39,906 bases of DNA, from the IMG/VR virus record IMGVR_UViG_2737471844_000008, positions 1 to 39,906 of that record. One strand, 5' to 3'. Origin of the DNA: a virus. Lineage: Duplodnaviria > Heunggongvirae > Uroviricota > Caudoviricetes. How positions within the stretch are numbered: the first letter of the stretch is position 1; each line of letters begins with the position of its first letter. The notes under the pieces were generated by a model. The model did no database searches, was not told the DNA's origin, and saw nothing but the letters and a program-made list of their open reading frames with translations. Made by a program: the position numbers and the translations under genes. Positions 1-37,664 of the stretch are shown here, piece by piece.

Positions 1-1173
1 TCAGGCCTTATGGTGGAAATAATCACTCAGGCGGGAAAACATGCCGCCTTCCCCGACAGATTCCAGGGTAACCAGCGGCCAGTGCGCCACCTGTTTATCA
101 CGGTCGTAAAGTTCAATTTCCCCTACCCGCTGATGGGCGCTAATTGGCGCGGTGAGCTCTTTACCATCAAGGGTATATTTGGCTTTGATATGTGGAATTT
201 CGGCTTTCGGTAGCACCATCCAGAACTCTTGTTCCGTTCCCAGGTCGATATTTTCTTTATCGCCATACCAGATGCGTTCCGTTCCGACCTTTTTCCCACG
301 GAGCAAAATTTGCACCGTAGTAAAGTTTTGTTGCCCCCAACGCAGTAATTTTCTTGCCTCTTCCTCACGACCTTTTGCACTGTCAGCCCCCATTACCACT
401 GCAATGAGACGACGCTGCCCATCTACAGCCGAAGCAATGAGATTAAACCCGGCACCAGAAGTATGACCCGTTTTCAGGCCGTCAACATTCATGGTTTTAT
501 CCCACAACAACCCGTTACGGTTTTGCTGGGTGATACCGTTCCAGGTGAGACTTTTCTCACTGTACATATGATAAAACTCGGGCTCGCCGTGGATGATAGC
601 GCGAGAAAGCACAGCTAAATCATAAGCCGAGCTATGCTGGCCAGGTGCATCCAGACCATGCACTGTTTCAAAATGCGTATCCTTGAGATGCAGCTTCTCG
701 GCATAGTTGTTCATCATTTCAACAAACTGCCGTTGCCCACCGGCAATATAGTCAGCCAGAGCAACACAAGCGTCATTTCCGGAATCCACAATTAAACCAC
801 GGCTTAAATCACGTACCGATACGCGATCGCCCTCTTTCAAAAACATCAGTGAAGAACCGACAAACACCGGATTATCTTTCGCCCACGCATCGCGCCCCAC
901 GGTGACAATATCATCTGGCGTAATGCGATGGCTATCGATAGCGCGATCCACGACATAACCCGTCATCAGCTTTGTCAGGCTGGCGGGATTGCGCTGTTGA
1001 TGCTCATTACCCGCGGTGAGGATCTGACCGGTGGTGTAATCCATCAGTACCCAGGACCCGGCATGAATCTGTGGAGGCTGAGGTGAAAAAGGAATGTTTT
1101 CCGCCGCAAAACCAGACGATAAGTTAAAAACGAACAAAGAAGCAGCAATAATAAGACGGCGTTTCAACAGCAA
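1..1173 (-). CDS. dacD: D-alanyl-D-alanine carboxypeptidase DacD (PBP6b), host gene
   Basis: 390-aa ORF matches remembered E. coli DacD along its whole length (N-terminal signal peptide MLLKRRLIIAASLFVF, SLTK active-site serine motif, SGN and KTG motifs). Stop codon sits at window positions 1..3. Confidence 0.95.
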   Translation of the reverse strand: MLLKRRLIIAASLFVFNLSSGFAAENIPFSPQPPQIHAGSWVLMDYTTGQILTAGNEHQQRNPASLTKLMTGYVVDRAIDSHRITPDDIVTVGRDAWAKDNPVFVGSSLMFLKEGDRVSVRDLSRGLIVDSGNDACVALADYIAGGQRQFVEMMNNYAEKLHLKDTHFETVHGLDAPGQHSSAYDLAVLSRAIIHGEPEFYHMYSEKSLTWNGITQQNRNGLLWDKTMNVDGLKTGHTSGAGFNLIASAVDGQRRLIAVVMGADSAKGREEEARKLLRWGQQNFTTVQILLRGKKVGTERIWYGDKENIDLGTEQEFWMVLPKAEIPHIKAKYTLDGKELTAPISAHQRVGEIELYDRDKQVAHWPLVTLESVGEGGMFSRLSDYFHHKA

Positions 1174-1961: not shown

Positions 1962-2324
1962 ATGTTAAAGCTATTTGCAAAGTACACCTCGATTGGTGTG
2001 CTGAACACACTTATACATTGGGTGGTTTTTGGTGTATGTATCTATGCCGCGCACACCAATCAGGCTCTTGCAAACTTCGCAGGTTTCGTTGTGGCTGTGA
2101 GCTTTAGCTTCTTCGCGAATGCAAAATTCACATTCAAAGCTTCGACTACAACGATGCGCTACATGTTATATGTAGGATTCATGGGAACACTGAGTGCTAC
2201 TGTTGGATGGGCTGCCGATAAATGTGCACTTCCTCCAATTGTCACTCTTGTCACCTTCTCCGCCATCAGCCTAGTGTGCGGTTTCGTCTATTCAAAGTTC
2301 ATTGTCTTTAGGGATGCGAAATGA
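1962..2324 (+). CDS. gtrA: GtrA, bactoprenol-linked glucose flippase (O-antigen conversion)
   Basis: 120-aa hydrophobic four-helix protein. ATG start; stop overlaps the gtrB start (ATGA), as in phage gtr operons. Confidence 0.9.
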
Positions 2325-3241
2325 AGATATCTCTGGTCGTTCCTGTCTTCAATGAAGAGGAAGCGATACCAATTTTTTATAAAACGGTACGTGAATTCGA
2401 AGAGTTGAAGCCATATGAAGTGGAAATTGTTTTTATAAATGATGGTAGCAAAGACGCTACGGAGTCAATCATTAACGCTCTGTCCGTTTCAGATCCCCTA
2501 GTTGTTCCGCTGTCATTTACACGAAACTTTGGTAAAGAACCAGCATTGTTTGCAGGGTTAGACCATGCAACCGGAGATGCTGTAATTCCAATTGATGTTG
2601 ACCTGCAAGACCCGATTGAGGTTATTCCTCATCTTATTGAAAAGTGGCAGGCAGGTGCTGATATAGTGCTTGCTAAACGTTCAGACCGTTCTACTGATAG
2701 CCGGCTTAAACGTAAATCTGCTGAATTGTTTTATAAGCTGCATAACAAAATAAGCACCCCTAAGATCGAGGAAAACGTAGGTGACTTCCGTCTGATGTCG
2801 CGAGAGGTCGTGGAGAACATCAAACTCATGCCGGAACGCAATCTTTTCATGAAGGGTGTGCTTAGTTGGGTTGGCGGTCGTACAGATGTCGTTGAATATG
2901 CCCGTGCAGAACGCGTTGCAGGAAGAACAAAATTCAACGGATGGAAACTATGGAACTTGGCGCTTGAGGGGATAACGAGCTTTTCAACCTTCCCTCTGCG
3001 CATGTGGACTTACATTGGTCTGTTCGTTGCAGGTGCAGCGTTACTTTACGGGGCATGGATGATTTTTGACACTCTCGTTTTTGGGAATGCTGTTAGAGGG
3101 TACCCATCACTTCTCGTCTCAATTCTATTTTTAGGCGGCATCCAACTTATCGGCATTGGCGTTCTTGGAGAGTACATTGGAAGGATTTACGTCGAGGTTA
3201 AACAAAGACCTAAATATATATTGAAAGGAATTAAAAAATGA
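2321..3241 (+). CDS. gtrB: GtrB, bactoprenol glucosyltransferase (GT2 family)
   Basis: 306-aa ORF with GT2 signatures ([16 protein letters not shown]) and two C-terminal transmembrane segments; high similarity to remembered phage GtrB proteins. Confidence 0.92.
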
Positions 3242-4689
3242 TAAACATTAAAATAAAATTATTAATTTTGTCCATCATTACTTCCGTTATTGTGTATGGT
3301 TATTGCTTATTTAACTTTAGTCTTTCTATAGATGGAGAGTTTTTTGATAATACCATTCACACAATATCACTTGGCAGGTGGGGTCATGCCCTGCTTCATC
3401 AGTTTATATTACCAGAGCCATACACGCCTTTCTTTTCAGTATTATTATCTTTAGTTATTATTGCCATTGCCGCATGGATGGCATCTATTTTTATAACAGA
3501 AAATACTCACGAGAGATTGGTTGTTATATTTGGTTTTTTTGCCACGCCGCAACTTGCTTATCAATTGCAGTTTACTAACCAGGCAGACACCACAGCTATT
3601 GGTATTCTGTTGGTTGTTATATCCGCGATAACATCATTTAAAGCGATGGATGGTGACAAATCATTACTTAATGCAACCATATCTATTGTATGTCTTTGCT
3701 GTGCTATATCAATATACCAGTCATTTCTTGTTGTAGCGTTTAGTGTATATGTTGGATTCTTTATCCTGAGAACAAGAAATAAAGAAAACAATAAATATAA
3801 AACATCAATAATTAAATTCTCGTTATATAGCACAGTAATATTCATACTTTCACTTGCATTGTATTTTATGTTTTTCAAAATAATATTAATTTCGTATGGA
3901 GTTGATGATAAGACTGCGGAATATTCAAGATCACAAATGGCGTGGGGTTACAGACAAAATAGTTATATAATTAATTATCTGTATAACTACACAAAAAACT
4001 TTTTGCTTGGAGATACGTTTTTTGGGTTTAGGACGTATATTGTTGGAGTGATTGCTGTAGTGGTGGTTTTTTTTAACTTAGTATTCAAACGAAACCTAAA
4101 TAATGCAACGTCATGTTTAATGTCACTTGCTTTGGTGTTATCTCCTTTAGTTCTTGTTTTTTATTTCGGCAATAACCAGATGCCACGCACTTACATTTCA
4201 ATGAGCTTTGTAGTGGCATTTTCAGTTCTGATTATATTCAGAGGCTTGAGTTTAAAGAAAGAGTTTATTATTATCCCGGTCTTCATGTGCCTTTACTCTA
4301 CTTATGCAGCATCGGCATTATTTTATTCTGATGATATTGCAAGATCTAGAGATGAGTTTATATCACGAAAGATAGTTTCTGATGCGCAGTCATTAATTAA
4401 GCATGGTGAGTCTAGTATTATAACACTTTACTTTCATGGACATATAAATAATGAAAACAGATGGAAGTTACGAAACAGTGACACATTTGGAGTGTCTTTC
4501 TTTTCTTGGGATAATGGTGACCCTAGAAGAATATGTGCATATATTTCATATTACTCACTAGCAAAAGTTAGGTGTGAAAAGATATCATCTGGATATGACG
4601 CCAACATAGCAATGAAATTGCCGCCATACCCTTACATAGGATATATAAAAAACGAAAACGGAAAACTAATAATCAATCTTGGTGGGTAA
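3238..4689 (+). CDS. GtrC-like serotype-specific O-antigen glucosyltransferase (polytopic membrane protein)
   Basis: 483-aa highly hydrophobic ORF overlapping the gtrB stop. Markedly AT-rich compared with its neighbours. Third-gene position of a gtr cluster. Confidence 0.75.
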
Positions 4690-4691
4690 AA

Positions 4692-6725
4692 TTACATAGT
4701 TGTACCATCAGCGTATTTCCAAGCTTGAGCCAGTTGATCAAAAAAAACTGGCTTTTTAGTGTCTATGTTATAGATACTGTGACCGTACCCAAGAAGGTTC
4801 TTATTTATAGCGTTTATCTGTGAGGACGTTGCAGCAGTTGGAATGCCAGACCATGCAACAGTAATTAATATCCAGTTGCTTCCAGTCCAGCGGATGTATG
4901 TTCCTGTATCTGTCTGATAAAAAATATGACCAACAGGAACACCAACTGGCCTGGCAGAAGAAAGCCCAACAACCTGGAAGCCTCTGTCGTCAATCCAAAT
5001 TCCAGCCCCTGCGTTGGTGATGAACCTTCCAAATGCCACGTCATAGTAACTGAAACCAGCAATCGCAGACGTAGTGAAGCCAGATTTCCAGGCGGCAGAG
5101 TTATCAATTGATCTAACTCGAATTTCGCGTCTTGTTGCTTCCGTTGCACTCGATGGTGACGCGTTAGATACAGTGTGAATGGAAACGATATCAACCAGCG
5201 TGCTTACAGGTTCTTCACCACGATAGATGTACTGGAAGCCATCATAGTGGGCACTCTGAGAGTCAATGAATGTCGCCCGCACACGATCTGGTCGACCATA
5301 GTAAACAGATAGCGCATTGGCTGATGCGTATGCTTCATTATAATAGCGCGAACTCTTATCCTGAATTCTCAGAACGTTTTTGTAATCCACGCCAACAGCA
5401 ATGCCAGCGGTAGTGGTGGTGAACCTGAACTCGTTATCCGAAAGAATCAGATCTCCCATTTGCCACGTTGGACTATTAATGTCGTCCTCCGCTCCTTGTG
5501 CACCAATCAAAATTCCCGTTGCGAATGTGCGGCAGCGGTTATCACTGACTTTGAATACATCTGATTTCTGGTCGTGTCTGTGCGTGAATAGAGCAAAACC
5601 ATAACCGCCAACTAGGTCATTGTTGTGCAGGTTAACGCGGTGTGTGCCAATGAATTTAAACGCGCGTTCAAACGTTGTTTCTGGTGTTTCAGTATTGTAA
5701 TTGCGCATCACAACACTGTTGTTTTGTACGAATGCGGCGCGGCTGGTTCCTGTTCCATCGGCAAAACTTGATGCGTAGACCGCATGGCGATCAAGCGGTG
5801 CGCCGGCTACACCAAAAATACAGTTGTCGACAGAGATAATCTCACAATCGATAGGGACAGTACCATAGCCATAAACACCTGCGCTCCAGTCCTGTGAAGC
5901 GAGTTGCTGGAATACGTTGGAGTAACGAACGCCATAGCACAAGTGAATCTGTGCAGTCACAGTGTTAACACCAGCACTGATGTTGCGCATTTCTGATCCT
6001 TCATAATGCGCATAAACGTTGTTCACAGTAATGCCAACTACAGCACGCCCAACACCACGAACTTTTCCGCCGTCAATTTTTACTTTAGTGGTGACGCTTT
6101 CGACGCCTGTTCCGTCAAACGTCAGGATCTGGTAGTAGGTGTTTACGTCTGTAGGCGTGAAGTTAACCCAACCGTCAGCCGTAGATTTGATTGTAATGTC
6201 TCTACCATTTAACGATCTGCGAATTGGTGTGTTTATATTCTGTACGTTATCAATGAGAACATCAGCACTGTTCTCAAGAGCGGTATCAATAGCCTGTTCA
6301 AGGCTTCCAGCCTCTGATGTTTTTACAAGACCGCGAACGCCTCCAATGTATGAAAAACCAATAGAAGATGAAAGCCTTCCCTCCAGCTGATCAGGATCAT
6401 ACTTCAGCACATTAGGAAAATAGAACTGCTTCGCCCCATACGCATCGTACACAGCCATAGAATGACCTTGCACAGTTACGAACTTGGCAATCTGTCCGTT
6501 ATATACCGGGTAACCAGCAGCGTTAATGATGATTGGTTGCGAAACAGGAACGTGAGCGCCATCTTCGTTCTCCACATAAACCTGAATCTGGTTTTCAGGA
6601 TTTACAGGGTCAGTGTCAATTTTACCGATATAAATTTTGCCATTGGCTACAGCTTTAAAAGAACGAGCCATAGTGAAAAGTTGCGAAGGCATGCTTACCA
6701 CAACATTTGCGGTGATATCTGACAT
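4692..6725 (-). CDS. Tailspike protein: P22 gp9-type head-binding domain fused to a divergent receptor-binding domain
   Basis: From [13 protein letters not shown] the first ~110 aa closely match the P22/HK620 tailspike head-binding domain; the rest is divergent. The ORF-track start at 6773 is a 16-aa upstream extension; an ATG at 6723..6725 is preceded by a GGAG Shine-Dalgarno. Confidence 0.9.
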
Positions 6726-6846
6726 TTCATTGCTCCAGACGAATGATATGATGCAACCATGATGTGATTGCATACCGAAATGGTACTATTGAGTATTTAT
6801 CCAGTAGGTTACGATGCCATTCCACCCAACTGGTGAGGCATCAAGG

Positions 6847-28390: not shown

Positions 28391-28430
28391 TCCCCAAAAT
28401 AAAAAGGCCTGCGATTACCAGCAGGCCTGT
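28391..28430 (-). terminator. tR2-like intrinsic terminator between the replication and nin modules
   Basis: Minus-strand RNA AGGCCUGC-UGGUAAUC-GCAGGCCU (8-bp perfect stem) followed by UUUUUAUUUUGG; same position as lambda tR2. Confidence 0.65.
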
Positions 28431-28457: not shown

Positions 28458-30338
28458 TTAATACTCCGTCACGTTTTCCTGTCGCCACGCCTCGTCATAT
28501 TCCGATTTCGGCATATTGGCGATGTAGCTATATGGCGATCCTGATTCAAGTTGCAGGAACTGGTGCGATTGCTCGTCAAGGAACAACGGGACACCACCTT
28601 CCCAACCTTCGCCGTTACGTTGTTTTTCAAGCATCAAAACAGATGCCGGAGATGCCAGTAGCTGTTCGTCCTTCTCTGACATCTTTTCACCACTCTGAAC
28701 TCTCTGTAACGCTCTCTCGCGAGCCTTGTTACGCCAGATGATGAAAAGGTTGTCTGTCAGGTCTGTTATCGCTCCAGAGCCTTTTACGTCCATTTTCCCG
28801 GTTGGTTTTTCTTCGCTGTCACCTTTTCGCGAGTGAGTAACGAGAATGACGTGGGAGTTTGTTTTGTTTTTGAAATCGCAAATCGAGTCAACAAACGCCT
28901 TCTGCCCGTTATAGTCATCGTCGCCTATGCCACATTTCATCAGGCTGTCGATGATGAATAACTGGATGCCGTATCGGCGGCGAGCGTAGTCGAATATTTC
29001 GATCAGCCTGTCGGCTTTCGCCGTTCCGGTCAGGCCAAACACCCAAAGTCTTTCGTCATAAAATTTAAATGCAGAGTCAATTTCCAGCACTGGCGGCATC
29101 TTGCAGCACGTCGCCTGACGGGTAAGTCGCTTAAGGAGAATGCCTGGCTTCAGCTCAAGTGACGCGATGCACGTCTTCACACCCTGACGCATTGCCTCAA
29201 GTGCCATATGCCCGACAACCTCCGTTTTCCCGTGACCGTTCACACCATTGACCAGCGTCAACTCGGCCTCACGGAACTGGAATTTATCTGCCAGAGATTC
29301 CCACGGTGGATTAAACAGATACTGCTGCTTGCCGTAGAAAGCGTTGATAGTGTCCTGGTAAAACTCTCGCGCGCTGTAGAGTTCTTCAGGATCGAAGTAA
29401 GATGCCGTGCCGATGTACTGCCAGATTTCATCCTCGGTAACACCGTTCATCAGGCATTCGTTGATGTCTTTGTACGGCAGAGTAACAAGACGGCAACGAT
29501 GTTCACCGAGTCGGCTTGCGATTTCCCTTGCGGCTTCACGACCAACATCATCAACATCCATCGAGATGAATATTTCCTCAAACCTGTCGAGGTTGTGATA
29601 CTCAAACTCAATCCACTGTTGCTTAGCGCCTTTCCCGCCACCAAACGGCACGGATAACGCCGAGATGCCGTATTGCGCATAGCTCATACAATCAATTTCG
29701 CCTTCGCAAAGCACAACCGCCCTCACGCCAGCGTCCAGAGCCTGCCATCCGAACAGACAAGGTTCACAATCACCTTCTGCCATAATGACTTTCTTCCCGT
29801 CCGGGCGCTCAGTGCTGATTCGCTTGACCTGCAACAACTCACCATCGCGTTTGTACGGAAGCACCAGTGCATCAAGTTCTCGTTCTCCATTCCACACCTT
29901 GCCGCTGACAACCTCGTAGCGCTTTACGACTTCTGGCGATATGCCACGCGATTGCAGGTACTCAAGATGGGATTCTGTTCTGGTAACGTAGCGGGCTATT
30001 TTCTTGCGATCAGGTCTGGAGAATTTCTTCTCACGTTTGGCATCGAAATGGTGATCGTCATCCTTGATACCGAGAAATGCTTTCGCTTCCTGCATAGCCT
30101 GATGCAGGTTAATTCCACGACATGCCATCCACAAATCAAGCATGTCACCGCCGTCTCCCTCAGCGAAATCAGCCCATTTTTTCTTGCCGCTAAGATTGAC
30201 CTTAAGGCTGTTTCCCTTGTCACCGTTGACGTTACCGGCAACCCACTCATGCCCCTCTTTCTTGCCGTTTGGCAACAGGTGCGGAGCCACCCTGTCAACC
30301 TGCGCCCAAAGCAGGTCGCTAAGTTCACTTGGCGTCAT
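28458..30338 (-). CDS. Bifunctional replicative primase-helicase (TOPRIM primase plus SF4 DnaB/Twinkle-like RecA-fold ATPase)
   Basis: 626-aa ORF. TOPRIM signature (VLCEGEIDCMS, then DVDDVGREAA) followed by Walker A (NGVNGHGKTE) and Walker B (LFIIDSL). Confidence 0.8.
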   Translation of the reverse strand: MTPSELSDLLWAQVDRVAPHLLPNGKKEGHEWVAGNVNGDKGNSLKVNLSGKKKWADFAEGDGGDMLDLWMACRGINLHQAMQEAKAFLGIKDDDHHFDAKREKKFSRPDRKKIARYVTRTESHLEYLQSRGISPEVVKRYEVVSGKVWNGERELDALVLPYKRDGELLQVKRISTERPDGKKVIMAEGDCEPCLFGWQALDAGVRAVVLCEGEIDCMSYAQYGISALSVPFGGGKGAKQQWIEFEYHNLDRFEEIFISMDVDDVGREAAREIASRLGEHRCRLVTLPYKDINECLMNGVTEDEIWQYIGTASYFDPEELYSAREFYQDTINAFYGKQQYLFNPPWESLADKFQFREAELTLVNGVNGHGKTEVVGHMALEAMRQGVKTCIASLELKPGILLKRLTRQATCCKMPPVLEIDSAFKFYDERLWVFGLTGTAKADRLIEIFDYARRRYGIQLFIIDSLMKCGIGDDDYNGQKAFVDSICDFKNKTNSHVILVTHSRKGDSEEKPTGKMDVKGSGAITDLTDNLFIIWRNKARERALQRVQSGEKMSEKDEQLLASPASVLMLEKQRNGEGWEGGVPLFLDEQSHQFLQLESGSPYSYIANMPKSEYDEAWRQENVTEY

Positions 30339-30442
30339 GATTCCCTCAGATTGAGATTTTTAAACCAGAAATCGACAAACGAAATACTTAACCAGCCGTG
30401 GTTATAACCAGCGACCAGTAGCGATTTGATTTTTGATTTCAT
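30335..30442 (-). CDS. Hypothetical 35-aa ORF coupled between the O-like gene and the primase-helicase
   Basis: ATG 3 nt after the O-like stop; its TGA overlaps the primase-helicase ATG (ATGA); encodes MKSKIKSLLVAGYNHGWLSISFVDFWFKNLNLRES. Confidence 0.3.
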   Translation of the reverse strand: MKSKIKSLLVAGYNHGWLSISFVDFWFKNLNLRES

Positions 30443-30445
30443 GGT

Positions 30446-31306
30446 TCACCTGTCGAAAAACACGTAGCCAGTTTTCGATACGGTGATTGCGGATGATGGT
30501 TTGGATTGTGGTTGAATAGTTTCTGGCTTCTCGTCGTTCCAGCGTTGACCGTTCAGGTAGCTCGATGGTAACAACCTGTCGAATCCGAACTGCTTACCAT
30601 TCCTGCATGCGATGTCTTCTGCCAGCATCGTGGCAAACTCGCTTGCCGTACCCCTGGTAGTTTTACGCCATTCCCTGAACTGTGTTCTGAATGCCGAAGC
30701 TGCGTTTTTCTTCCCGGCTTTCCGCATGCCTGCACACCAGAATATTTCCTCGAATGCCTTGTCGGTTTCTTCGTGACGGTCATGTGATTTTTCACACTCC
30801 GTCCGAACACTTTCGGACATAGTGTTTTTATTATTTCTTTTTTCTTTTGTAATAGTTTCTTTTGTGTGTCCCTGTTTTGGTGACAGCGCTGTCACCGTTT
30901 TGGTGACACTTTTTGTCACCAATGCAGTGACATTATCACCAGAGTAGTGACACCCTTCTATTTGCCATTCCTCGATGTTCTTGTTAGGCCCGATTTGCTG
31001 GCCTTCGCGAAGGATAACCTTCATCGCGATAAGCTCATTCTTGGCCTTGTTTACCTTCTGTCTTGGCAGCCTGGTAATTTGAGCTAACTGACTATCAGAG
31101 ATGCGATCCATCTTTTTACCGTAGCCGTATGTTTTACGGCATATGGCGTGGGCAACCTTGCTCTGATTTTTCGTTAAATCTGCGCCGATAAGCTCTTCAT
31201 ACAGGGCATTTGCAAGACGGGTATAACCATCTTCAACTTCTGACACACGACGCTCCACAGGCCGTTGTGAAGGCCTTAAATGTGTTACGGTTGCAAGATT
31301 ACTCAT
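30446..31306 (-). CDS. Replication initiator (lambda O-like replisome organiser) containing the origin
   Basis: N-terminal phage replication-initiator DNA-binding domain ([51 protein letters not shown]); iterons and AT-rich tract lie mid-gene as in lambda O. Confidence 0.8.
30826..30955 (-). repeat. Origin of replication: four iterons plus adjacent AT-rich tract inside the O-like gene
   Basis: (G/A)GTGACA...TGTCACC palindromic units at 30879..30896, 30902..30920, 30926..30940 and 30946..30955 (period about 20-24 bp), flanked by a T-rich tract at 30826..30875. Confidence 0.7.
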
Positions 31307-31445
31307 GACCTTTCTCCTTCTGCATCAGCTTCACTTTTTCCAACTCAGCCCGGAATCGACCAGGCTGCTTGAAGCTGGACAGGAAGCGATCACGTAGTAT
31401 GTGTTTGTGAATTTTGTCCTGGTAAGGACTGAGTTGTTTTGTCAT
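31299..31445 (-). CDS. Hypothetical 48-aa ORF between cII and the O-like gene
   Basis: ATG at 31445; its stop overlaps the first codons of the O-like gene; encodes [48 protein letters not shown]. Confidence 0.3.
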
Positions 31446-31477: not shown

Positions 31478-31771
31478 TCAGAATTCCATCTGGATTTGTT
31501 CAGAACGCTCGGTTGCCGCCGGGCGTTTTTTATTGGTGAGAATCGAAGCAACTTGTCGTGCCAATCGAGCCATATCGTCGTCAACGACGCCCCATTCAAG
31601 AACAGCAAGCAGCATTGAGAACTTTGGAATCCAGTCCCTCTTCCACCTGCTGATCTGCGACTTATCAACTCCCACAGCTTCCGCTGTCTTCTCAGTTCCA
31701 AGCATTGCGATTTTGTTAAGCAACGCACTCTCGATTCGTAGAGCCTCGTTGCGTTTGTTTGCACGAACCAT
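31478..31771 (-). CDS. cII: CII transcriptional activator (lambda CII-type)
   Basis: From [47 protein letters not shown] the ORF is near-identical to lambda CII. The ORF-track N-terminal extension is translated nutR/tR1 leader. Confidence 0.9.
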
Positions 31772-31804
31772 ATGTAAGTATTTCCTTAACAAATAAGAAG
31801 TTAT

Positions 31805-31822
31805 GCGCATCAACTTATGCGC
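31805..31822 (-). terminator. tR1-like hairpin between nutR and cII
   Basis: Minus-strand RNA GCGCAU-AAGUUG-AUGCGC followed by a U-rich tract (AUAACUUCUUAUUUGUU). Confidence 0.3.
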
Positions 31823-31828
31823 GTTGTA

Positions 31829-31872
31829 TTCCCGCATTTCGGCGGGAATGAGGACCATGACTGTTAAAGAGC
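31829..31872 (-). promoter_or_regulatory. nutR (boxA plus boxB)
   Basis: Minus-strand boxA GCTCTTTAACA starts 8 nt after the cro stop, followed by boxB hairpin UUCCCGC-CGAAAU-GCGGGAA. The same boxB recurs at nutL. Confidence 0.65.
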
Positions 31873-31879
31873 AATTTGC

Positions 31880-32065
31880 TTATGCCGCTTTGCGGTAAGC
31901 GCTTTCTTGATACTTCAGGGCGCCAGCTGTAACGACTTCCAGTCGATAGGCGTCTTTCTCTGGGATGACTTCCTTCCACTGAGAGACTGCTGCGTCGCTA
32001 ATGCCTAACGCTTTAGCTACAGCACGCTGGGTTCCGAAGTGGTCGATAACATCTTTCTTGTACAT
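31880..32065 (-). CDS. cro: Cro repressor, P22-type
   Basis: 61-aa ORF near-identical, from memory, to P22 Cro (MYKKDVIDHFGTQRAVAKALGISDAAVSQWKEVIPEKDAYRLE...). Confidence 0.93.
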   Translation of the reverse strand: MYKKDVIDHFGTQRAVAKALGISDAAVSQWKEVIPEKDAYRLEVVTAGALKYQESAYRKAA

Positions 32066-32079
32066 AGACTCGCTCCGAA

Positions 32080-32145
32080 ATTAAAGAACACTTAAATTAT
32101 CCACTAAAGGAATCTTAAGTCAAGTTTATTTAAGATGTCTTAACT
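32080..32145. promoter_or_regulatory. Right operator OR1-OR2-OR3 with divergent PR (to cro) and PRM (to c2)
   Basis: Three 18-bp P22-type operators: ATTAAAGAACACTTAAAT (32080..32097), ACTAAAGGAATCTTAAGT (32103..32120), ATTTAAGATGTCTTAACT (32128..32145). PR on the minus strand: -35 TTGACT (32118..32123), 17-nt spacer, -10 ATAATT (32095..32100). The c2 ATG directly follows OR3. Confidence 0.75.
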
Positions 32146-32796
32146 ATGAAAACTCAATTGATGGGAGAGCGCATTCGCGCTCGGAGAAAAGAACTCAAGA
32201 TCAGGCAGGCCGCACTTGGAAAGATGGTCGGCGTGTCTAATGTTGCCATATCTCAGTGGGAACGCTCTGAGACAGAGCCAAATGGAGAGAATCTTCTCGC
32301 CCTGGCTAATGCGTTGAAGTGTTCCCCTGACTATCTGATGAAAGGAGAGGAAAGTCTTTCAAACATTGCCTATCACAGTAGGCATGATCCAAGAGGGTCA
32401 TACCCTCTGATTAGCTGGGTGAGCGCAGGATGCTGGATGGAAGCTGTAGAACCATATCATAAGCGTGCAATAGATAACTGGTACGATACAACCGTAGACT
32501 GTTCAGAAGATTCGTTTTGGTTGGACGTGAAGGGAGACTCAATGACGGCTCCGGCCGGTCTCAGTATCCCTGAAGGAATGATAATACTCGTCGATCCTGA
32601 AGTAGAGCCGCGTAACGGGAAACTGGTAGTTGCAAAGCTCGAAGGAGAAAACGAGGCAACTTTCAAGAAGTTAGTTATTGATGCAGGCAGGAAGTTTCTA
32701 AAACCACTTAACCCACAATATCCGATGATCGAGATCAACGGAAACTGCAAAATCATCGGCGTAGTTGTCGATGCAAAACTAGCAAACCTTCCATAA
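32146..32796 (+). CDS. c2: C2 repressor (P22 c2; CI-type HTH plus S24 LexA-like autopeptidase)
   Basis: 216-aa ORF near-identical, from memory, to P22 C2 (QLMGERIRARRKELKIRQAALGKMVGVSNVAISQWERSETEPNGENLLAL...). Confidence 0.95.
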   Translation: MKTQLMGERIRARRKELKIRQAALGKMVGVSNVAISQWERSETEPNGENLLALANALKCSPDYLMKGEESLSNIAYHSRHDPRGSYPLISWVSAGCWMEAVEPYHKRAIDNWYDTTVDCSEDSFWLDVKGDSMTAPAGLSIPEGMIILVDPEVEPRNGKLVVAKLEGENEATFKKLVIDAGRKFLKPLNPQYPMIEINGNCKIIGVVVDAKLANLP

Positions 32797-33756: not shown

Positions 33757-34614
33757 ATGCCAGGATTTACAAGTAAATTCATACCAAGAAGAGAATTCAA
33801 GCATAATCCAGAAAGACTAAATGTTATTTCTTCCGGTGGTGGTACTCAAAGTAACGCAATAATCTGCTTAGTACATGCTGGCGTTCTTCCAAAGCCTGAC
33901 ATTATCGTTATGTCAGATACAGAACGTGAGGCAAGTAATGTATTTGAATATCAGAAAAAATATATAGCTCCTATTTGTGAAGATATGGGTGTTGATTACC
34001 TGATTGTTCCTAAAAGTAGATTTGCTACCTACGACATTGATGGGCCTGATCCAGACGTTCCTCTACCTGGATATTTCACAGAATACGAGGGAAGGGATTC
34101 AAAAGGAATGTGCGCTGGAAAGCAACCAGCATTTTGTTCTATAAAGTGGAAAACTGAAGTTATTCAGAGATTTTTAAATGAAAGATATGGAGAGAAGTAT
34201 CTTACAACAAGAGGAGTGGATAGTTGGATTGGGATAAGCATTGAAGAGGCTAAACGAAGAGCGAAATACCCAACTGGCAAGTGGCAGAGGCGCTATCCAC
34301 TTATTGAAATGCTAATGACTAAACAGATGGCAATTCAATGTGTAGAGGATTATGGTCTTCCTACACCACCTGCCTCGCTTTGCTGGATGTGCCCTAACAG
34401 AGATGATGATCTGTGGCTTTATATGAAAAATAACGTCCCATCTGATTTTGAAAGAGCATGTCAGCATGAAAAAGAGATACAAATGAAGTGGCCTCATTTG
34501 TGGCTTACTAAATATGGTGTTCCACTATCTGAGGCACCACTAACACCTAGTGGTGGTAAAAATGCACAAATGGATCTTATACAATTCTGCGATTCTGGAC
34601 TGTGCTTCGTTTAA
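33757..34614 (+). CDS. PAPS reductase-like PP-loop ATP pyrophosphatase family protein with C-terminal Cys cluster (accessory gene)
   Basis: 285-aa ORF; N-terminal PP-loop-like motif (VISSGGGTQSNAI) typical of the PAPS reductase/DndC/BrxP/IbrA superfamily; C-terminal cysteines (CWMC...C...CDSGLC); AT-rich coding sequence; two terminator-like hairpins follow. Confidence 0.8.
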   Translation: MPGFTSKFIPRREFKHNPERLNVISSGGGTQSNAIICLVHAGVLPKPDIIVMSDTEREASNVFEYQKKYIAPICEDMGVDYLIVPKSRFATYDIDGPDPDVPLPGYFTEYEGRDSKGMCAGKQPAFCSIKWKTEVIQRFLNERYGEKYLTTRGVDSWIGISIEEAKRRAKYPTGKWQRRYPLIEMLMTKQMAIQCVEDYGLPTPPASLCWMCPNRDDDLWLYMKNNVPSDFERACQHEKEIQMKWPHLWLTKYGVPLSEAPLTPSGGKNAQMDLIQFCDSGLCFV

Positions 34615-34776: not shown

Positions 34777-34894
34777 GCACTAACAACAGAATAAACACTG
34801 CACTGTGTATTCATTCCAACGAGTGAATACACGGAGCAATGTCGCTCGTAACTAAACAGGAGCCGACTTGTTCTGATTATTGGAAATCTTCTTT

Positions 34895-34921
34895 GCCCTC
34901 CAGTGTGAGGGCAATTTTTTT
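34895..34921 (+). terminator. Terminator-like hairpin immediately upstream of the coiled-coil gene
   Basis: GCCCTC-CAGTGT-GAGGGC stem followed by AATTTTTTT, ending 13 nt before the downstream ATG. Confidence 0.45.
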
Positions 34922-34933
34922 GATGGAGGATAT

Positions 34934-35902
34934 ATGAGTGAAGTAACAGATTTAGTTGTTATTGAAAAAGCAAATGCAATGACTGTATTTCAGTCTGCCG
35001 ACCAGATTGAAGAAATCCTTCAAAAGGTTGAACGTGAAGTTATGTCCTTTGTGCCTGATATCACAACGGCAAAGGGCAGAAAGGAGATCGCTTCTCTGGC
35101 GTATAAAGTTGCGCAGACGAAAACATATCTCGATGGTCTTGGAAAAGACCTTGTTGCTGAACTGAAGGAAATTCCAAAGCTAATTGATGCCAACCGCAAG
35201 ACAGTGCGTGATCGCCTTGATGAGCTGAAATCCAAGGCACGCCAGCCTCTTACTGATTATGAGGAGGAACAGGCACGGATTAAAGCCGAAGAAGAAGCTA
35301 AGGCAGCAGCTGAAGCTCTCGCAAAGCAAATTGAGTCTGACCATGAAATAGCTATTTTGATGGATCGCGAATTTGACCGCCAAAGAGAAGAGGCAAGACT
35401 CAAAGCGGAGCAGGAAAAGCGAGAGCATGAAGAACGCTTAAAAAGAGAAGCTGAAGAGAAAGCCAGAGCAGAAGCCGAAGCAAAGGCAAAAGCCGAAATT
35501 GAAGCAGCAGCAAGGCGAGAAGCAGAAGCTAAGGCCGCAGCGGAACGTGCAGAGCGTGAACGCATTGAAGCCGAGCAACGAGCACAGCGCGAAGCAAAAG
35601 AGGCAGCAGAACGAGCTGAAAGAGAAAAGCAGGCGGCAATTGAAGCAGAACGCCGAAAAGCACAGGAGGAGGCTGAACGAATCCGGCGCGAGGCTGAAGC
35701 AAAAGAGCAAGCCAGAATAGCAGAAGAAAAAAGAATCAAGGACGAAGAAGAGCGTAGAGCAAAGGATAAAGCTCACCGGAAAGAAGTAAATAACAAAATA
35801 CTTGCTGACCTTATCAAGGTTGGCGCATCAGAAGATGTTGCTAAAAATATCATAACAGCCATCGTAAAAGGCAAAGTATTCGCAACAAAAATAACCTACT
35901 AA
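34934..35902 (+). CDS. Coiled-coil protein with long Ala/Glu/Lys/Arg-rich TolA-like helix (unknown function)
   Basis: ATG at 34934 preceded by GGAGGA; the ORF-track start at 34880 is a TTG that would translate the terminator hairpin. About 120-aa N-terminal domain, about 180 aa of EAKA/AERA-type repeats, short C-terminal domain. Confidence 0.7.
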   Translation: MSEVTDLVVIEKANAMTVFQSADQIEEILQKVEREVMSFVPDITTAKGRKEIASLAYKVAQTKTYLDGLGKDLVAELKEIPKLIDANRKTVRDRLDELKSKARQPLTDYEEEQARIKAEEEAKAAAEALAKQIESDHEIAILMDREFDRQREEARLKAEQEKREHEERLKREAEEKARAEAEAKAKAEIEAAARREAEAKAAAERAERERIEAEQRAQREAKEAAERAEREKQAAIEAERRKAQEEAERIRREAEAKEQARIAEEKRIKDEEERRAKDKAHRKEVNNKILADLIKVGASEDVAKNIITAIVKGKVFATKITY

Positions 35903-36449: not shown

Positions 36450-37157
36450 ATGGATTTGAATAAATTCGATGAGCCATTCAGCCCTGAAGATATCGAATGG
36501 CGAATACAGCAAAGCGGTAAAACACGCGATGGCAAAGTGTGGGCTATGGTGCTGGCTTATGTCACGAACCGGGCAATCATGAAACGCCTGGACGATGTTT
36601 GCGGCAAAGCAGGATGGCGCAATGAATACCGCGATATTCCCAACAACGGCGGAGTTGAATGCGGCATATCAATCAAGATTGATTCCGAATGGGTAACCAA
36701 ATGGGATGCTGCTGAAAACACGCAGGTAGAAGCCGTCAAAGGCGGTCGTTCCGGTGCAATGAAGCGCGCTGCCGTTCAGTGGGGAATCGGTCGGTATCTG
36801 TATAACCTTGAGGAAGGTTTTGCACAAACATCTCTCGATAAAAAGCAGGGATGGCACAGGGCAAAACTGAAGGATGGAACAGGATTTTACTGGCTCCCTC
36901 CATCGCTGCCGGGATGGGCAATCCCAGCATCAGATAACAAACCATCACCAGAAAATACCAACCAGAAATCTCCATCGGTTAACTGCGAACAAATCCTGAA
37001 AGACTTCAGCGATTATGCGTCAACAGAAACTGACAAGAAAAAACTCATCGAGCGTTATCAGCGTGACTGGCAATTAATGGCTGGCAACGAGGAGGCGCAG
37101 GCTAAATGCGTTCAGGTAATGAACATCAGAGTTAACGAACTAAAACAGGCGGCATAA
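36450..37157 (+). CDS. erf: Single-strand annealing protein: Erf C-terminal domain joined to a divergent Rad52/Sak-like N-terminal domain
   Basis: C-terminal ~55 aa (EQILKDFSDYASTETDKKKLIERYQRDWQLMAGNEEAQAKCVQVMNIRVNELKQAA) match the P22 Erf C-terminus; the N-terminal domain (KGGRSGAMKRAAVQWGIGRYLYN) does not match the P22 Erf N-terminus. Confidence 0.85.
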   Translation: MDLNKFDEPFSPEDIEWRIQQSGKTRDGKVWAMVLAYVTNRAIMKRLDDVCGKAGWRNEYRDIPNNGGVECGISIKIDSEWVTKWDAAENTQVEAVKGGRSGAMKRAAVQWGIGRYLYNLEEGFAQTSLDKKQGWHRAKLKDGTGFYWLPPSLPGWAIPASDNKPSPENTNQKSPSVNCEQILKDFSDYASTETDKKKLIERYQRDWQLMAGNEEAQAKCVQVMNIRVNELKQAA

Positions 37158-37664
37158 ATGGCAAGCAGAGGCGTAAATAAGGTGATTATCCTTGGTCGGG
37201 TAGGACAAGACCCGGAAGTTCGATACTCACCATCAGGAACAGCGTTCGCTAACCTGACAATAGCCACGTCAGAACAATGGCGAGATAAAAATACTGGCGA
37301 GCAAAAGGAATTGACTGAATGGCATCGTGTTGCTGTATCCGGGAAACTGGCTGAGGTCGTGGGGCAGTATGTGAAAAAAGGTGATCAGATTTATTTCGAG
37401 GGAATGCTGAGAACCAGAAAGTGGAAAGACCAGTCAGGGCAAGACCGTTACACAACCGAGGTTCATGTCGGAATTAATGGCGTGATGCAAATGCTTGGCG
37501 GCATTGGCGACAGCAAACAACAAGCAGCCAGCAGGCAATCACAGAAGCCACAGCAGCAATCATCACCAGCACAACACAACGAACCTCCGATGGATTTTGA
37601 CGACGATATACCCTTTGCACCAGTAACTCTCCCCTTCCCTCGTCACGCTATTCACGCAATTTAA
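37158..37664 (+). CDS. ssb: Single-stranded DNA-binding protein (SSB)
   Basis: 168-aa ORF with an OB-fold N-terminus ([38 protein letters not shown]), Gln/Pro-rich linker and acidic C-terminal tail (DFDDDIPF); start abuts the erf stop. Confidence 0.93.

Follow-up and report, generated by a model that had tools for sequence, protein, structure and literature searches.

The closest described relative of the replication genes considered here is the segment formed by genes 59, 60 and 61 of phage ES18, for which the GenBank record (AY736146; Casjens et al. 2005) describes gp59 as "similar to phage lambda gpO", marks a "rep_origin similar to lambda ori", gives gp60 as "function unknown" and lists gp61 as "putative primase/helicase; similar to phage T7 gene 4". 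The same region is covered in the paper on phage epsilon34 (PMC2629481), and a paper of 2023 treats the ES18 type as the third type of replication module found in P22-like phages, where it is a sister of the module built from P22 genes 18 and 12 (PMC10307801). The present work analyzes a replication module in IMG/VR record IMGVR_UViG_2737471844_000008, a stretch of 39,906 nucleotides which is referred to below as the window and in which an O-like initiator gene, an open reading frame (ORF) of 35 codons and a primase-helicase gene follow one another on the minus strand. The likeness to ES18 extends from the order of the genes to the presence of an internal ori in the O-like gene and to the sizes of the other two genes (108 bp for gene 60 and 1881 bp for the primase/helicase gene).

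The analysis makes it likely that the window carries an ES18-type module of a P22-like lambdoid prophage, in which a lambda-type origin and initiator are combined with a primase-helicase resembling gp4 of phage T7 and not with a loader of the host DnaB helicase. The arrangement is real and probably functional. It is also already known, and it is ordinary because the ES18 annotation dates from 2005 and many enterobacterial prophages have it: the module was found in 286 of 5426 complete E. coli genomes (about 5%) when at least 80% of it had to be matched at an identity of at least 90%, and all of the best matches but one reach at least 95%. The term “non-canonical” that was applied to the locus in an initial annotation therefore overstates the case for a module recognized as ES18 gp59-gp61, treated in both of the papers cited above and present in this many genomes. 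The elements named in that annotation were all recovered at the places given, including the three ORFs (286, 35 and 626 amino acids), and its domain assignments hold. Its proposal that an O-like initiator paired with a primase-helicase here takes the place of the lambda O/P or P22 gene 18/gene 12 scheme agrees with the absence of a P homologue among the window genes and with a helicase that is not of the DnaB type.

The primase-helicase

The protein encoded downstream of the O-like gene matches Pfam Toprim_2 with 47 bits over residues 209-296 (cut-off 22.1) and AAA_25 with 28 bits (cut-off 27), and it belongs to phrog_239, “DNA primase/helicase”, with an E-value of 1.9e-171. Its best matches among PDB sequences are T7 gp4 (E 2.7e-23) and Twinkle, its identity to gp4 is 26% over 371 residues, and an hhalign comparison of a 20-sequence family alignment with T7 gp4 pairs residues 100-538 with T7 residues 53-505 at a probability of 99%. 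A Foldseek search with an AlphaFold2 (AF2) model generated from the same 20-sequence alignment returned T7 gp4 (E 1.9e-17), Twinkle and Aquifex DnaG at the top; the model has a mean pLDDT of 63, with values of 70-90 in the primase half, and is used here for the overall fold and not for claims about individual residues. These matches agree with the earlier description of the protein as a single-chain TOPRIM primase-SF4 helicase of 626 residues. A DnaB-type helicase was considered and ruled out, since DnaB_C scores 23.8 bits, which is below its 27-bit cut-off, and the Pfam scan gave no match to the DnaB N-terminal domain (PF00772); the domain evidence from Pfam likewise rules out a loader of the lambda P type.

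The catalytic residues of both halves can be placed by BLASTP alignment to T7 gp4, in which E212, D261, D263 and D291 of the TOPRIM domain correspond to T7 E157, D207, D209 and D237, while K371/T372, E395, D464 and H502 of the helicase domain correspond to K318/S319, E343, D424 and H465. They are invariant in 20 relatives that are 69-95% identical to the window protein, except that T372 is near-invariant (at least 90%). A wider set of 124 sequences, made up of the window protein and 123 others that each represent a 50%-identity cluster and share 37-59% identity with it, retains the catalytic residues overall in at least 118 members and the TOPRIM residues in 118-123. The loss of catalytic residues, which had been named beforehand as the observation that would speak against the reading, was looked for, and the TOPRIM and helicase residues listed above were all found to be kept.

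The resemblance to T7 gp4 and Twinkle thus covers the domain order, the E/DxD/D pattern of the TOPRIM domain, Walker A and B, the catalytic glutamate, the motif H3 histidine and the best fold matches. The differences from T7 are that the window protein has a conserved zinc-less element in the place of the Cys4 zinc finger, that the window phage is temperate and has no polymerase gene among its annotated ORFs, and that an O-type initiator is proposed to bring its primase-helicase to a defined origin, T7 gp4 being associated with transcription-primed origins. With the P22 gene 18/gene 12 pair the module shares the principle of an O-family initiator accompanied by a phage replicative helicase that replaces host DnaB, and it differs from that pair in that the helicase is not DnaB-type like P22 gp12 and carries its own primase domain.

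The C-terminus of the protein forms a conserved acidic and aromatic tail (...SEYDEAWRQENVTEY). Tails of this acidic, aromatic-terminated kind occur in T7 gp4, gp2.5 and bacterial SSB, where they bind polymerase or partner proteins, and by analogy the tail of the window protein could be a contact to replisome proteins of the host.

The initiator and the origin

The initiator can be divided into three segments. Residues ~1-118 are identified by profile and sequence comparison as a winged-helix origin-binding domain of the lambda O type: residues 21-114 match Pfam Phage_rep_O (PF04492) with 127 bits (cut-off 28.7), the match to TIGR01610 reaches 104.9 bits (cut-off 45.5), phrog_277 and phrog_2365 (“replication initiation O-like”) both match, and identity to lambda O is 48% over residues 1-157. 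Residues ~119-164 form a repetitive, low-complexity linker which is encoded by the ori DNA. Residues ~165-286 make up a C-terminal domain (C-domain) that matches lambda O over only 43 amino acids at 28% identity and is unrelated to the P-binding domain of lambda O, while it is 96.7% identical to the corresponding part of ES18 gp59. phrog_33384 matches residues 157-286, and a Pfam scan of these residues alone, with E-values up to 1, found no family.

The origin lies inside the O-like gene and contains four iterons, all of them inverted repeats (TGTCACC-N5-GGTGACA) that deviate from TGTCACCNNNNNGGTGACA at 0-2 positions. When up to 3 mismatches are allowed, the whole 39.9-kb window contains 5 matches against 1.47 expected, and 4 of these cluster in 86 bp. 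Read along the coding strand of the gene, the iterons start 20, 24 and 23 bp apart, which is exactly the spacing of the annotated lambda iterons (J02459: 39034, 39054, 39078, 39101), and the array starts 354 nt into the gene, compared to 348 nt in lambda; the 20/24/23 spacing recurs in modules of Proteus and Xenorhabdus prophages. The O N-terminal domain (N-domain) is predicted to bind the four iterons as a dimer. The AT-rich tract that follows them, and which is the predicted unwinding element, differs from the lambda tract at a single position in its first ~33 nt, as read from the aligned sequences. The tract (ACACAAAAGAxACTATTACAAAAGAAAAAAGAAA...) is near-identical in lambda, the window and the Proteus and Xenorhabdus prophages, and is kept in all four although the flanking iterons and C-domains vary. 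The inverted repeat beyond the tract sits at what we take to be the position of the lambda palindrome to the right of the AT-rich tract.

Because the spacing of the iterons, the position of the array and the AT-rich tract all match lambda, and an inverted repeat follows, the region is assigned by sequence comparison as a lambda-type ori with a different iteron specificity and not as a chance repeat. The four GTGACA/TGTCACC iterons and the AT-rich tract reported earlier inside the O-like gene were thus recovered as four palindromic units of 19 bp and a tract of 20% GC, and the range given for them, 30826-30955, spans the iterons and most of the tract. The likeness to lambda also includes the surrounding operon, in which cro and cII, with an oop-like terminator, precede O. 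The window differs from lambda in having no P gene, in the unrelated O C-domain, in a partner that is a phage primase-helicase instead of a loader of host DnaB, and in the additional DUF2740 gene and 35-codon gene that flank O.

Natural mosaics

In the classical logic of lambda replication, the N-terminus of O serves ori and its C-terminus serves P. Natural recombinants show how this division of labour applies to the present module when their proteins are compared with those of the window (identities are relative to the window, and the C-domain is taken as O residues 165-286). In phage PhiR12_4 the N-domain is 99% identical and the iterons are the same, but the C-domain is of the lambda type, with only 28% identity over 43 amino acids, and the partner is lambda P. 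ES18 has the reverse combination of a lambda-type N-domain (56%) and lambda iterons with a C-domain that is 96.7% identical and a primase-helicase as partner. In the Stx2a phage phiXuzhou21 the N-terminal half is unrelated and the repeats are different, again together with a C-domain at 96.7% and a primase-helicase. The more distant modules of a Proteus prophage (N-domain 72%, window-type iterons, C-domain 56%) and a Xenorhabdus prophage (N-domain 50%, its own iterons at the common spacing, C-domain 52.5%) also have a primase-helicase as partner. The TGTCACC-N5-GGTGACA specificity is found in the window, Sf101, mEp043, SEN22 and PhiR12_4, while epsilon34 shares the lambda-specificity N-domain and lambda iterons of ES18, and across the 8 modules compared the iteron sequence co-varies with the type of the O N-domain.

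The positions at which homology to the window breaks are consistent with an exchange of two halves. For ES18 and PhiR12_4 the break lies at the last iteron or in the AT-rich tract: the homology of PhiR12_4 ends inside the tract and that of ES18 resumes near it, while that of the Stx2a phages resumes only at the downstream edge of the tract, at ~30826. The tract is therefore the joint between a half comprising the N-domain and the iterons and a half comprising the C-domain and the helicase, and the coincidence of several such joints with it suggests that it acts as a recombination hotspot as well as an unwinding element. Since natural mosaics swap these halves, the O N-domain travels with the iterons and the O C-domain with the primase-helicase, and it is the mosaics that provide the main support for the proposed recruitment of the primase-helicase by the C-domain. 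The two-domain logic of lambda O is in this way applied to a different partner, and the module is a clean natural example of the modularity of a two-domain initiator.

The 35-codon gene

The gene order of O, 35-codon ORF and primase-helicase is kept across genera, including the Proteus and Xenorhabdus prophages. The ATG of the ORF lies 3 nt past the TGA stop of O, with AGGTGA upstream as a plausible Shine-Dalgarno sequence, and its stop overlaps the start of the primase-helicase gene (ATGA), which has GAGGGA upstream in the same role; the translational coupling proposed earlier for this ORF can be read directly from the 3-nt gap and the overlap. In ES18, SEN22, Min27, phiXuzhou21 and phiKp_30 the ORF is uninterrupted and has exactly 35 codons. 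It has the same length, although it has not been called as a gene, in the Proteus mirabilis and Xenorhabdus prophages, whose primase-helicases share only 69-70% identity with the window protein. In all of these relatives except phiKp_30, which has extra DNA between the two genes, its stop codon overlaps or directly adjoins the start of the helicase gene (ATGA, TAATG or TGATG). Of the codons that differ from Min27, 9 are changed synonymously and 10 in a mostly conservative way, and the core motif GY..G.[LI]S...V..WF is retained. Because the length, the junction and the core motif are conserved, and because many of the changes are synonymous or conservative, we conclude from this pattern that the ORF is a real small gene.

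Proposed mechanism and alternative explanations

The comparisons are consistent with the following sequence of events. Upon induction, transcription from PR would proceed through cro, cII, the DUF2740 gene, the O-like gene, the 35-codon ORF and the primase-helicase gene, and the overlapping stops and starts would keep the expression of the last three linked. Winged-helix dimers of the O N-domain would bind the four iterons and, in the manner of lambda O at ori-lambda, deform the AT-rich tract next to them, after which the O C-domain would recruit the hexameric phage primase-helicase to the opened DNA. The SF4 motor would then unwind and the TOPRIM domain prime, and synthesis would fall to host DNA polymerase III, because no polymerase gene is present among the annotated ORFs of the window. 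Replication of this kind would be expected to be independent of host DnaB, of DnaG and of the pathway through lambda P and the DnaK/DnaJ/GrpE chaperones. This independence is an inference, as are iteron binding, helicase recruitment and primase activity, whereas the anatomy, the domain families, the conserved catalytic residues, the ori layout identical to that of lambda and the patterns of co-inheritance were observed directly.

The independence from DnaG that was initially proposed is less secure than the proposal implies because of the N-terminal element of the protein, which resembles a zinc ribbon but lacks the zinc ligands throughout the family. TIGR01391 (dnaG) aligns to residues 26-143 with an E-value of 9e-10, which supports homology of the element to DnaG; a phmmer search of the N-terminal 200 amino acids against PDB sequences gave an Aquifex DnaG match that is marginal and not significant by itself (E 1.3). 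The zinc-less motif W55-x-D57-F58-A-x-G-x-G64-D65 is near-invariant in the 124 sequences, with W55, D57, F58, G64 and D65 each present in at least 112 of them. The motif of this segment has also been written as W-x-D-F-A-x-G-x-G-G-D.

Several observations weigh against the reading of the module as an origin served by an active and dedicated primase-helicase. The positions of the zinc ligands are occupied by A34, V37, D57 and E60, so that no cysteine or histidine ligand is present; the only cysteine within residues 1-100 is C73; the segment of residues 25-70 contains 0-2 cysteines in 123 of the 124 sequences and 3 in the remaining one; and a full set of cysteine ligands occurs in none of the 123 diverse relatives. 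Since the family lacks the ligands, primase activity is not to be assumed. The helicase half of the AF2 model is of low confidence, and R574, which lies in the invariant stretch EKQRNGEG and is the candidate for the arginine finger (T7 R522), was assigned by inspection only, because the alignments stop at residues 538/539 (hhalign at 538). A homologue of O residues 182-259 is also encoded by Vibrio phage D173, where no primase-helicase is annotated in the ~4 kb around it, which rules out the notion that the O C-domain is exclusive to the primase-helicase partner. Finally, the searchable literature yielded comparative annotation only and no biochemical or genetic test of this primase-helicase family.

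One alternative is that the 626-residue protein is a helicase only, that its primase half survives, as in metazoan Twinkle, merely as a remnant with a structural or recruiting role, and that host DnaG still primes, much as P22 depends on DnaG for priming while using its own DnaB-type helicase gp12. The absent zinc ligands, the placement of D57 and E60 at two cysteine ligand positions in the marginal alignment to Aquifex DnaG, the absence of any zf-CHC2 or Prim_Zn_Ribbon match in the Pfam scan of the protein and the appearance of Twinkle among the closest structures are all compatible with it, as is the fact that the zinc-binding domain of T7 gp4 is required for template recognition and template-directed priming. 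It is nevertheless unlikely, since metazoan Twinkle has lost its TOPRIM residues together with the zinc ligands and primase activity, whereas the window protein has kept the TOPRIM residues (as have 118-123 of the 124 sequences), the N-terminal subdomain of its RNA-polymerase domain aligns to T7 gp4, and the zinc-less segment is so strongly conserved that a retained function is suggested. On the strength of the retained TOPRIM catalytic residues, the balance tips towards an active primase. A different departure from T7 gp4 is considered because the ligands have been lost family-wide and the 35-residue gene is strictly conserved: the protein may prime without recognition by a zinc finger, or the 35-residue micro-protein may be an obligatory third component, which might for example connect the O C-domain with the helicase ring as an adaptor or loader. 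This, too, has only a small chance of being correct, comparable to that of the helicase-only alternative.

Two further explanations would remove the function from the origin or from the module altogether, and both are far less probable than those just discussed. The iterons could be a by-product of the repetitive linker peptide, with the true origin elsewhere, as would be conceivable for coding repeats that specify a low-complexity linker. However, each repeat unit is a palindrome at the DNA level, the spacing is kept in lambda, Xenorhabdus and the window although the repeat sequences differ wholly, the repeat sequence co-varies with the type of the N-domain and not with the rest of the protein, the repeats are directly followed by a tract near-identical to the one in lambda ori, an origin defined by experiment, and the equivalent stretch of ES18 is annotated as rep_origin; this makes the explanation very improbable. 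The possibility that the prophage is decaying and the module in it no longer functions, to which the chromosome-like context of the window lends some plausibility, is if anything even more remote, since the three ORFs are intact and 98.7-98.9% identical in DNA to the named sequenced phages Sf101 and mEp043, the catalytic residues are intact, and the surrounding early-right and early-left operons look complete. The preferred reading of an ES18-type module with a functional primase-helicase receives additional support from the intein described in the following section, which is inserted in Walker A of relatives of the protein; inteins typically occupy conserved, functionally critical sites, and this one is counted in favour of a functional enzyme.

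Relatives and prevalence

Aligned over its whole length, the module shows high DNA identity with Shigella phage Sf101 (98.9%), coliphage mEp043 (98.7%) and Salmonella phage SEN22 (91.7%), and the part from the ori or AT-rich tract through the helicase gene is 88.7% identical to ES18 and 88.5% identical to epsilon34 and g341c, so that the ES18-type module is shared by all of these phages. At the protein level, the 90%-identity cluster of the primase-helicase has 5632 member sequences, and 2311 of 8000 candidates examined are proteins that match at an E-value of at most 1e-10. The Eru replication types of Stx phages covered by the descriptions consulted are different proteins.

In the Stx2a-converting phages Min27, Phi24B and phiXuzhou21 the primase-helicase, the 35-codon ORF and the O C-domain are ~97% identical in DNA to those of the window, while the initiator has an unrelated N-terminal half with different repeats and the primase-helicase contains an intein of 342 amino acids in Walker A after K371. 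The protein is 968 amino acids long in Stx2a-converting phages (phiXuzhou21-Stx2a, locus L006:1540-4446; also Min27, L002) and in Klebsiella phage phiKp_30 (locus L007:1257-4163), where the in-frame insertion splits Walker A (GHGK|T). The insertion matches Pfam LAGLIDADG_3 and Hom_end_hint, starts with Ala and ends with HN before Thr, and for these reasons is identified, on its sequence features, as an intein with a homing endonuclease; by inspection, these features resemble those of a class 3 intein. The window has the intein-free allele. In Min27 and Phi24B the primase-helicase gene is labelled “P” or is split into two ORFs, which looks like misannotation.

As a discovery the module matters little, and its practical value is as a reminder of the diversity of lambdoid replication: many “lambdoid” prophages, including those of the Stx2a-converting phages Min27 and Phi24B, replicate otherwise than by the textbook route through lambda O/P and DnaB, so that what lambda or 933W has taught about the need for DnaB, DnaG, DnaA or chaperones should be tested in them before it is taken to apply.

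Genomic context

The module lies in an early-right operon of textbook lambdoid organization on the minus strand of the window (Table 1). A PR-like promoter with 10 of 12 consensus matches would be expected to drive the genes from cro to the primase-helicase gene. The terminator-like hairpin that follows the primase-helicase gene marks, by its position, the end of the replication segment, and it presumably corresponds in location to lambda tR2 at the start of the nin region; beyond it the order of genes is ninB, a DNA methyltransferase, ninG, a NinI-like phosphatase and Q. The segment 31440-31560, which contains the 3' end of cII and an antisense terminator hairpin, agrees with the lambda cII/oop region at all but 5 of 121 positions, and an oop-like antisense RNA is for this reason probably made. 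The element was seen only by alignment to lambda, as an Rfam scan of the whole window at gathering thresholds returned nothing.

Table 1. Positions of the replication module, its predicted elements and other features of the window
Feature	Position	Strand	Remarks
Primase-helicase gene	28458-30338	-	626 aa
Zinc-less zinc-ribbon-like element	residues 1-~95 of 626-aa protein		
RNA-polymerase domain, DnaG/T7-type	residues ~100-310 of 626-aa protein		with TOPRIM (E212, D261, D263, D291)
SF4 RecA-type helicase domain	residues ~355-600 of 626-aa protein		Walker A G365-T372, E395, D464, H502
C-terminal tail of 626-aa protein	28458-28520	-	
Intein homing site (empty)	~29223-29228		between codons K371 and T372
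35-codon ORF	30335-30442	-	MKSKIKSLLVAGYNHGWLSISFVDFWFKNLNLRES; equivalent of ES18 gene 60; phrog_21848, E 4.4e-26
O-like gene	30446-31306	-	286 aa
Iterons, four of 19 bp	30934-30952, 30914-30932, 30890-30908, 30867-30885		inside O-like gene
AT-rich unwinding tract (predicted)	30817-30866		20% GC over 50 nt; directly after iterons in coding direction
Inverted repeat, 14 bp	30794-30825		86% complementary, 4-nt loop; immediately after AT-rich tract
Intrinsic-terminator-like hairpin	28405-28428	-	8 pairs (6 GC), then TTTTATTTT T-run; in 77-nt gap between primase-helicase gene and ninB
DUF2740 gene	31299-31445	-	48 aa; between cII and O-like gene
cII	31478-31858	-	Phage_CII
Terminator-like hairpin, cII/oop region	31502-31529	+	antisense to cII
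cro	31880-32065	-	
PR-like promoter	32096-32123	-	TTGACT-16-GATAAT; between cI-type repressor gene and cro
cI-type repressor gene	32146-32796	+	
PAPS-reductase-like gene	33757-34614	+	285 aa; phrog_424
Gene for 340-aa protein	34880-35902	+	phrog_1376
Erf-like annealing protein gene	36450-37157	+	early-left operon
Phage SSB gene	37158-37664	+	early-left operon; Pfam SSB E 1.6e-36
Integrase-like ORF	1-1173		at window edge
gtrA-gtrB-gtrC-like cluster	1962-4689	+	O-antigen glucosylation (serotype conversion)
Tailspike gene	4692-6773	-	693 aa; P22 head-binding domain

The DUF2740 gene overlaps the start of O by 8 nt, and the ribosome-binding context and first two codons (ATGACA) at its own start are the same as those at the start of lambda gene O. 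PHROGs calls its family “tail protein”, a label that is implausible at such a position.

The remainder of the window is that of a P22-like prophage, with genes for Erf and SSB, a gtrABC cluster and a tailspike that has the P22 head-binding domain. The SSB gene in the early-left operon means that the prophage supplies SSB in addition to its initiator, helicase and primase. The serotype-conversion cluster adjoins the tailspike gene. The genes for the PAPS-reductase-like protein, which has no Pfam match at an E-value of 1e-4, and for the 340-residue protein lie just past the repressor gene, on the strand opposite to that of the early-right genes.

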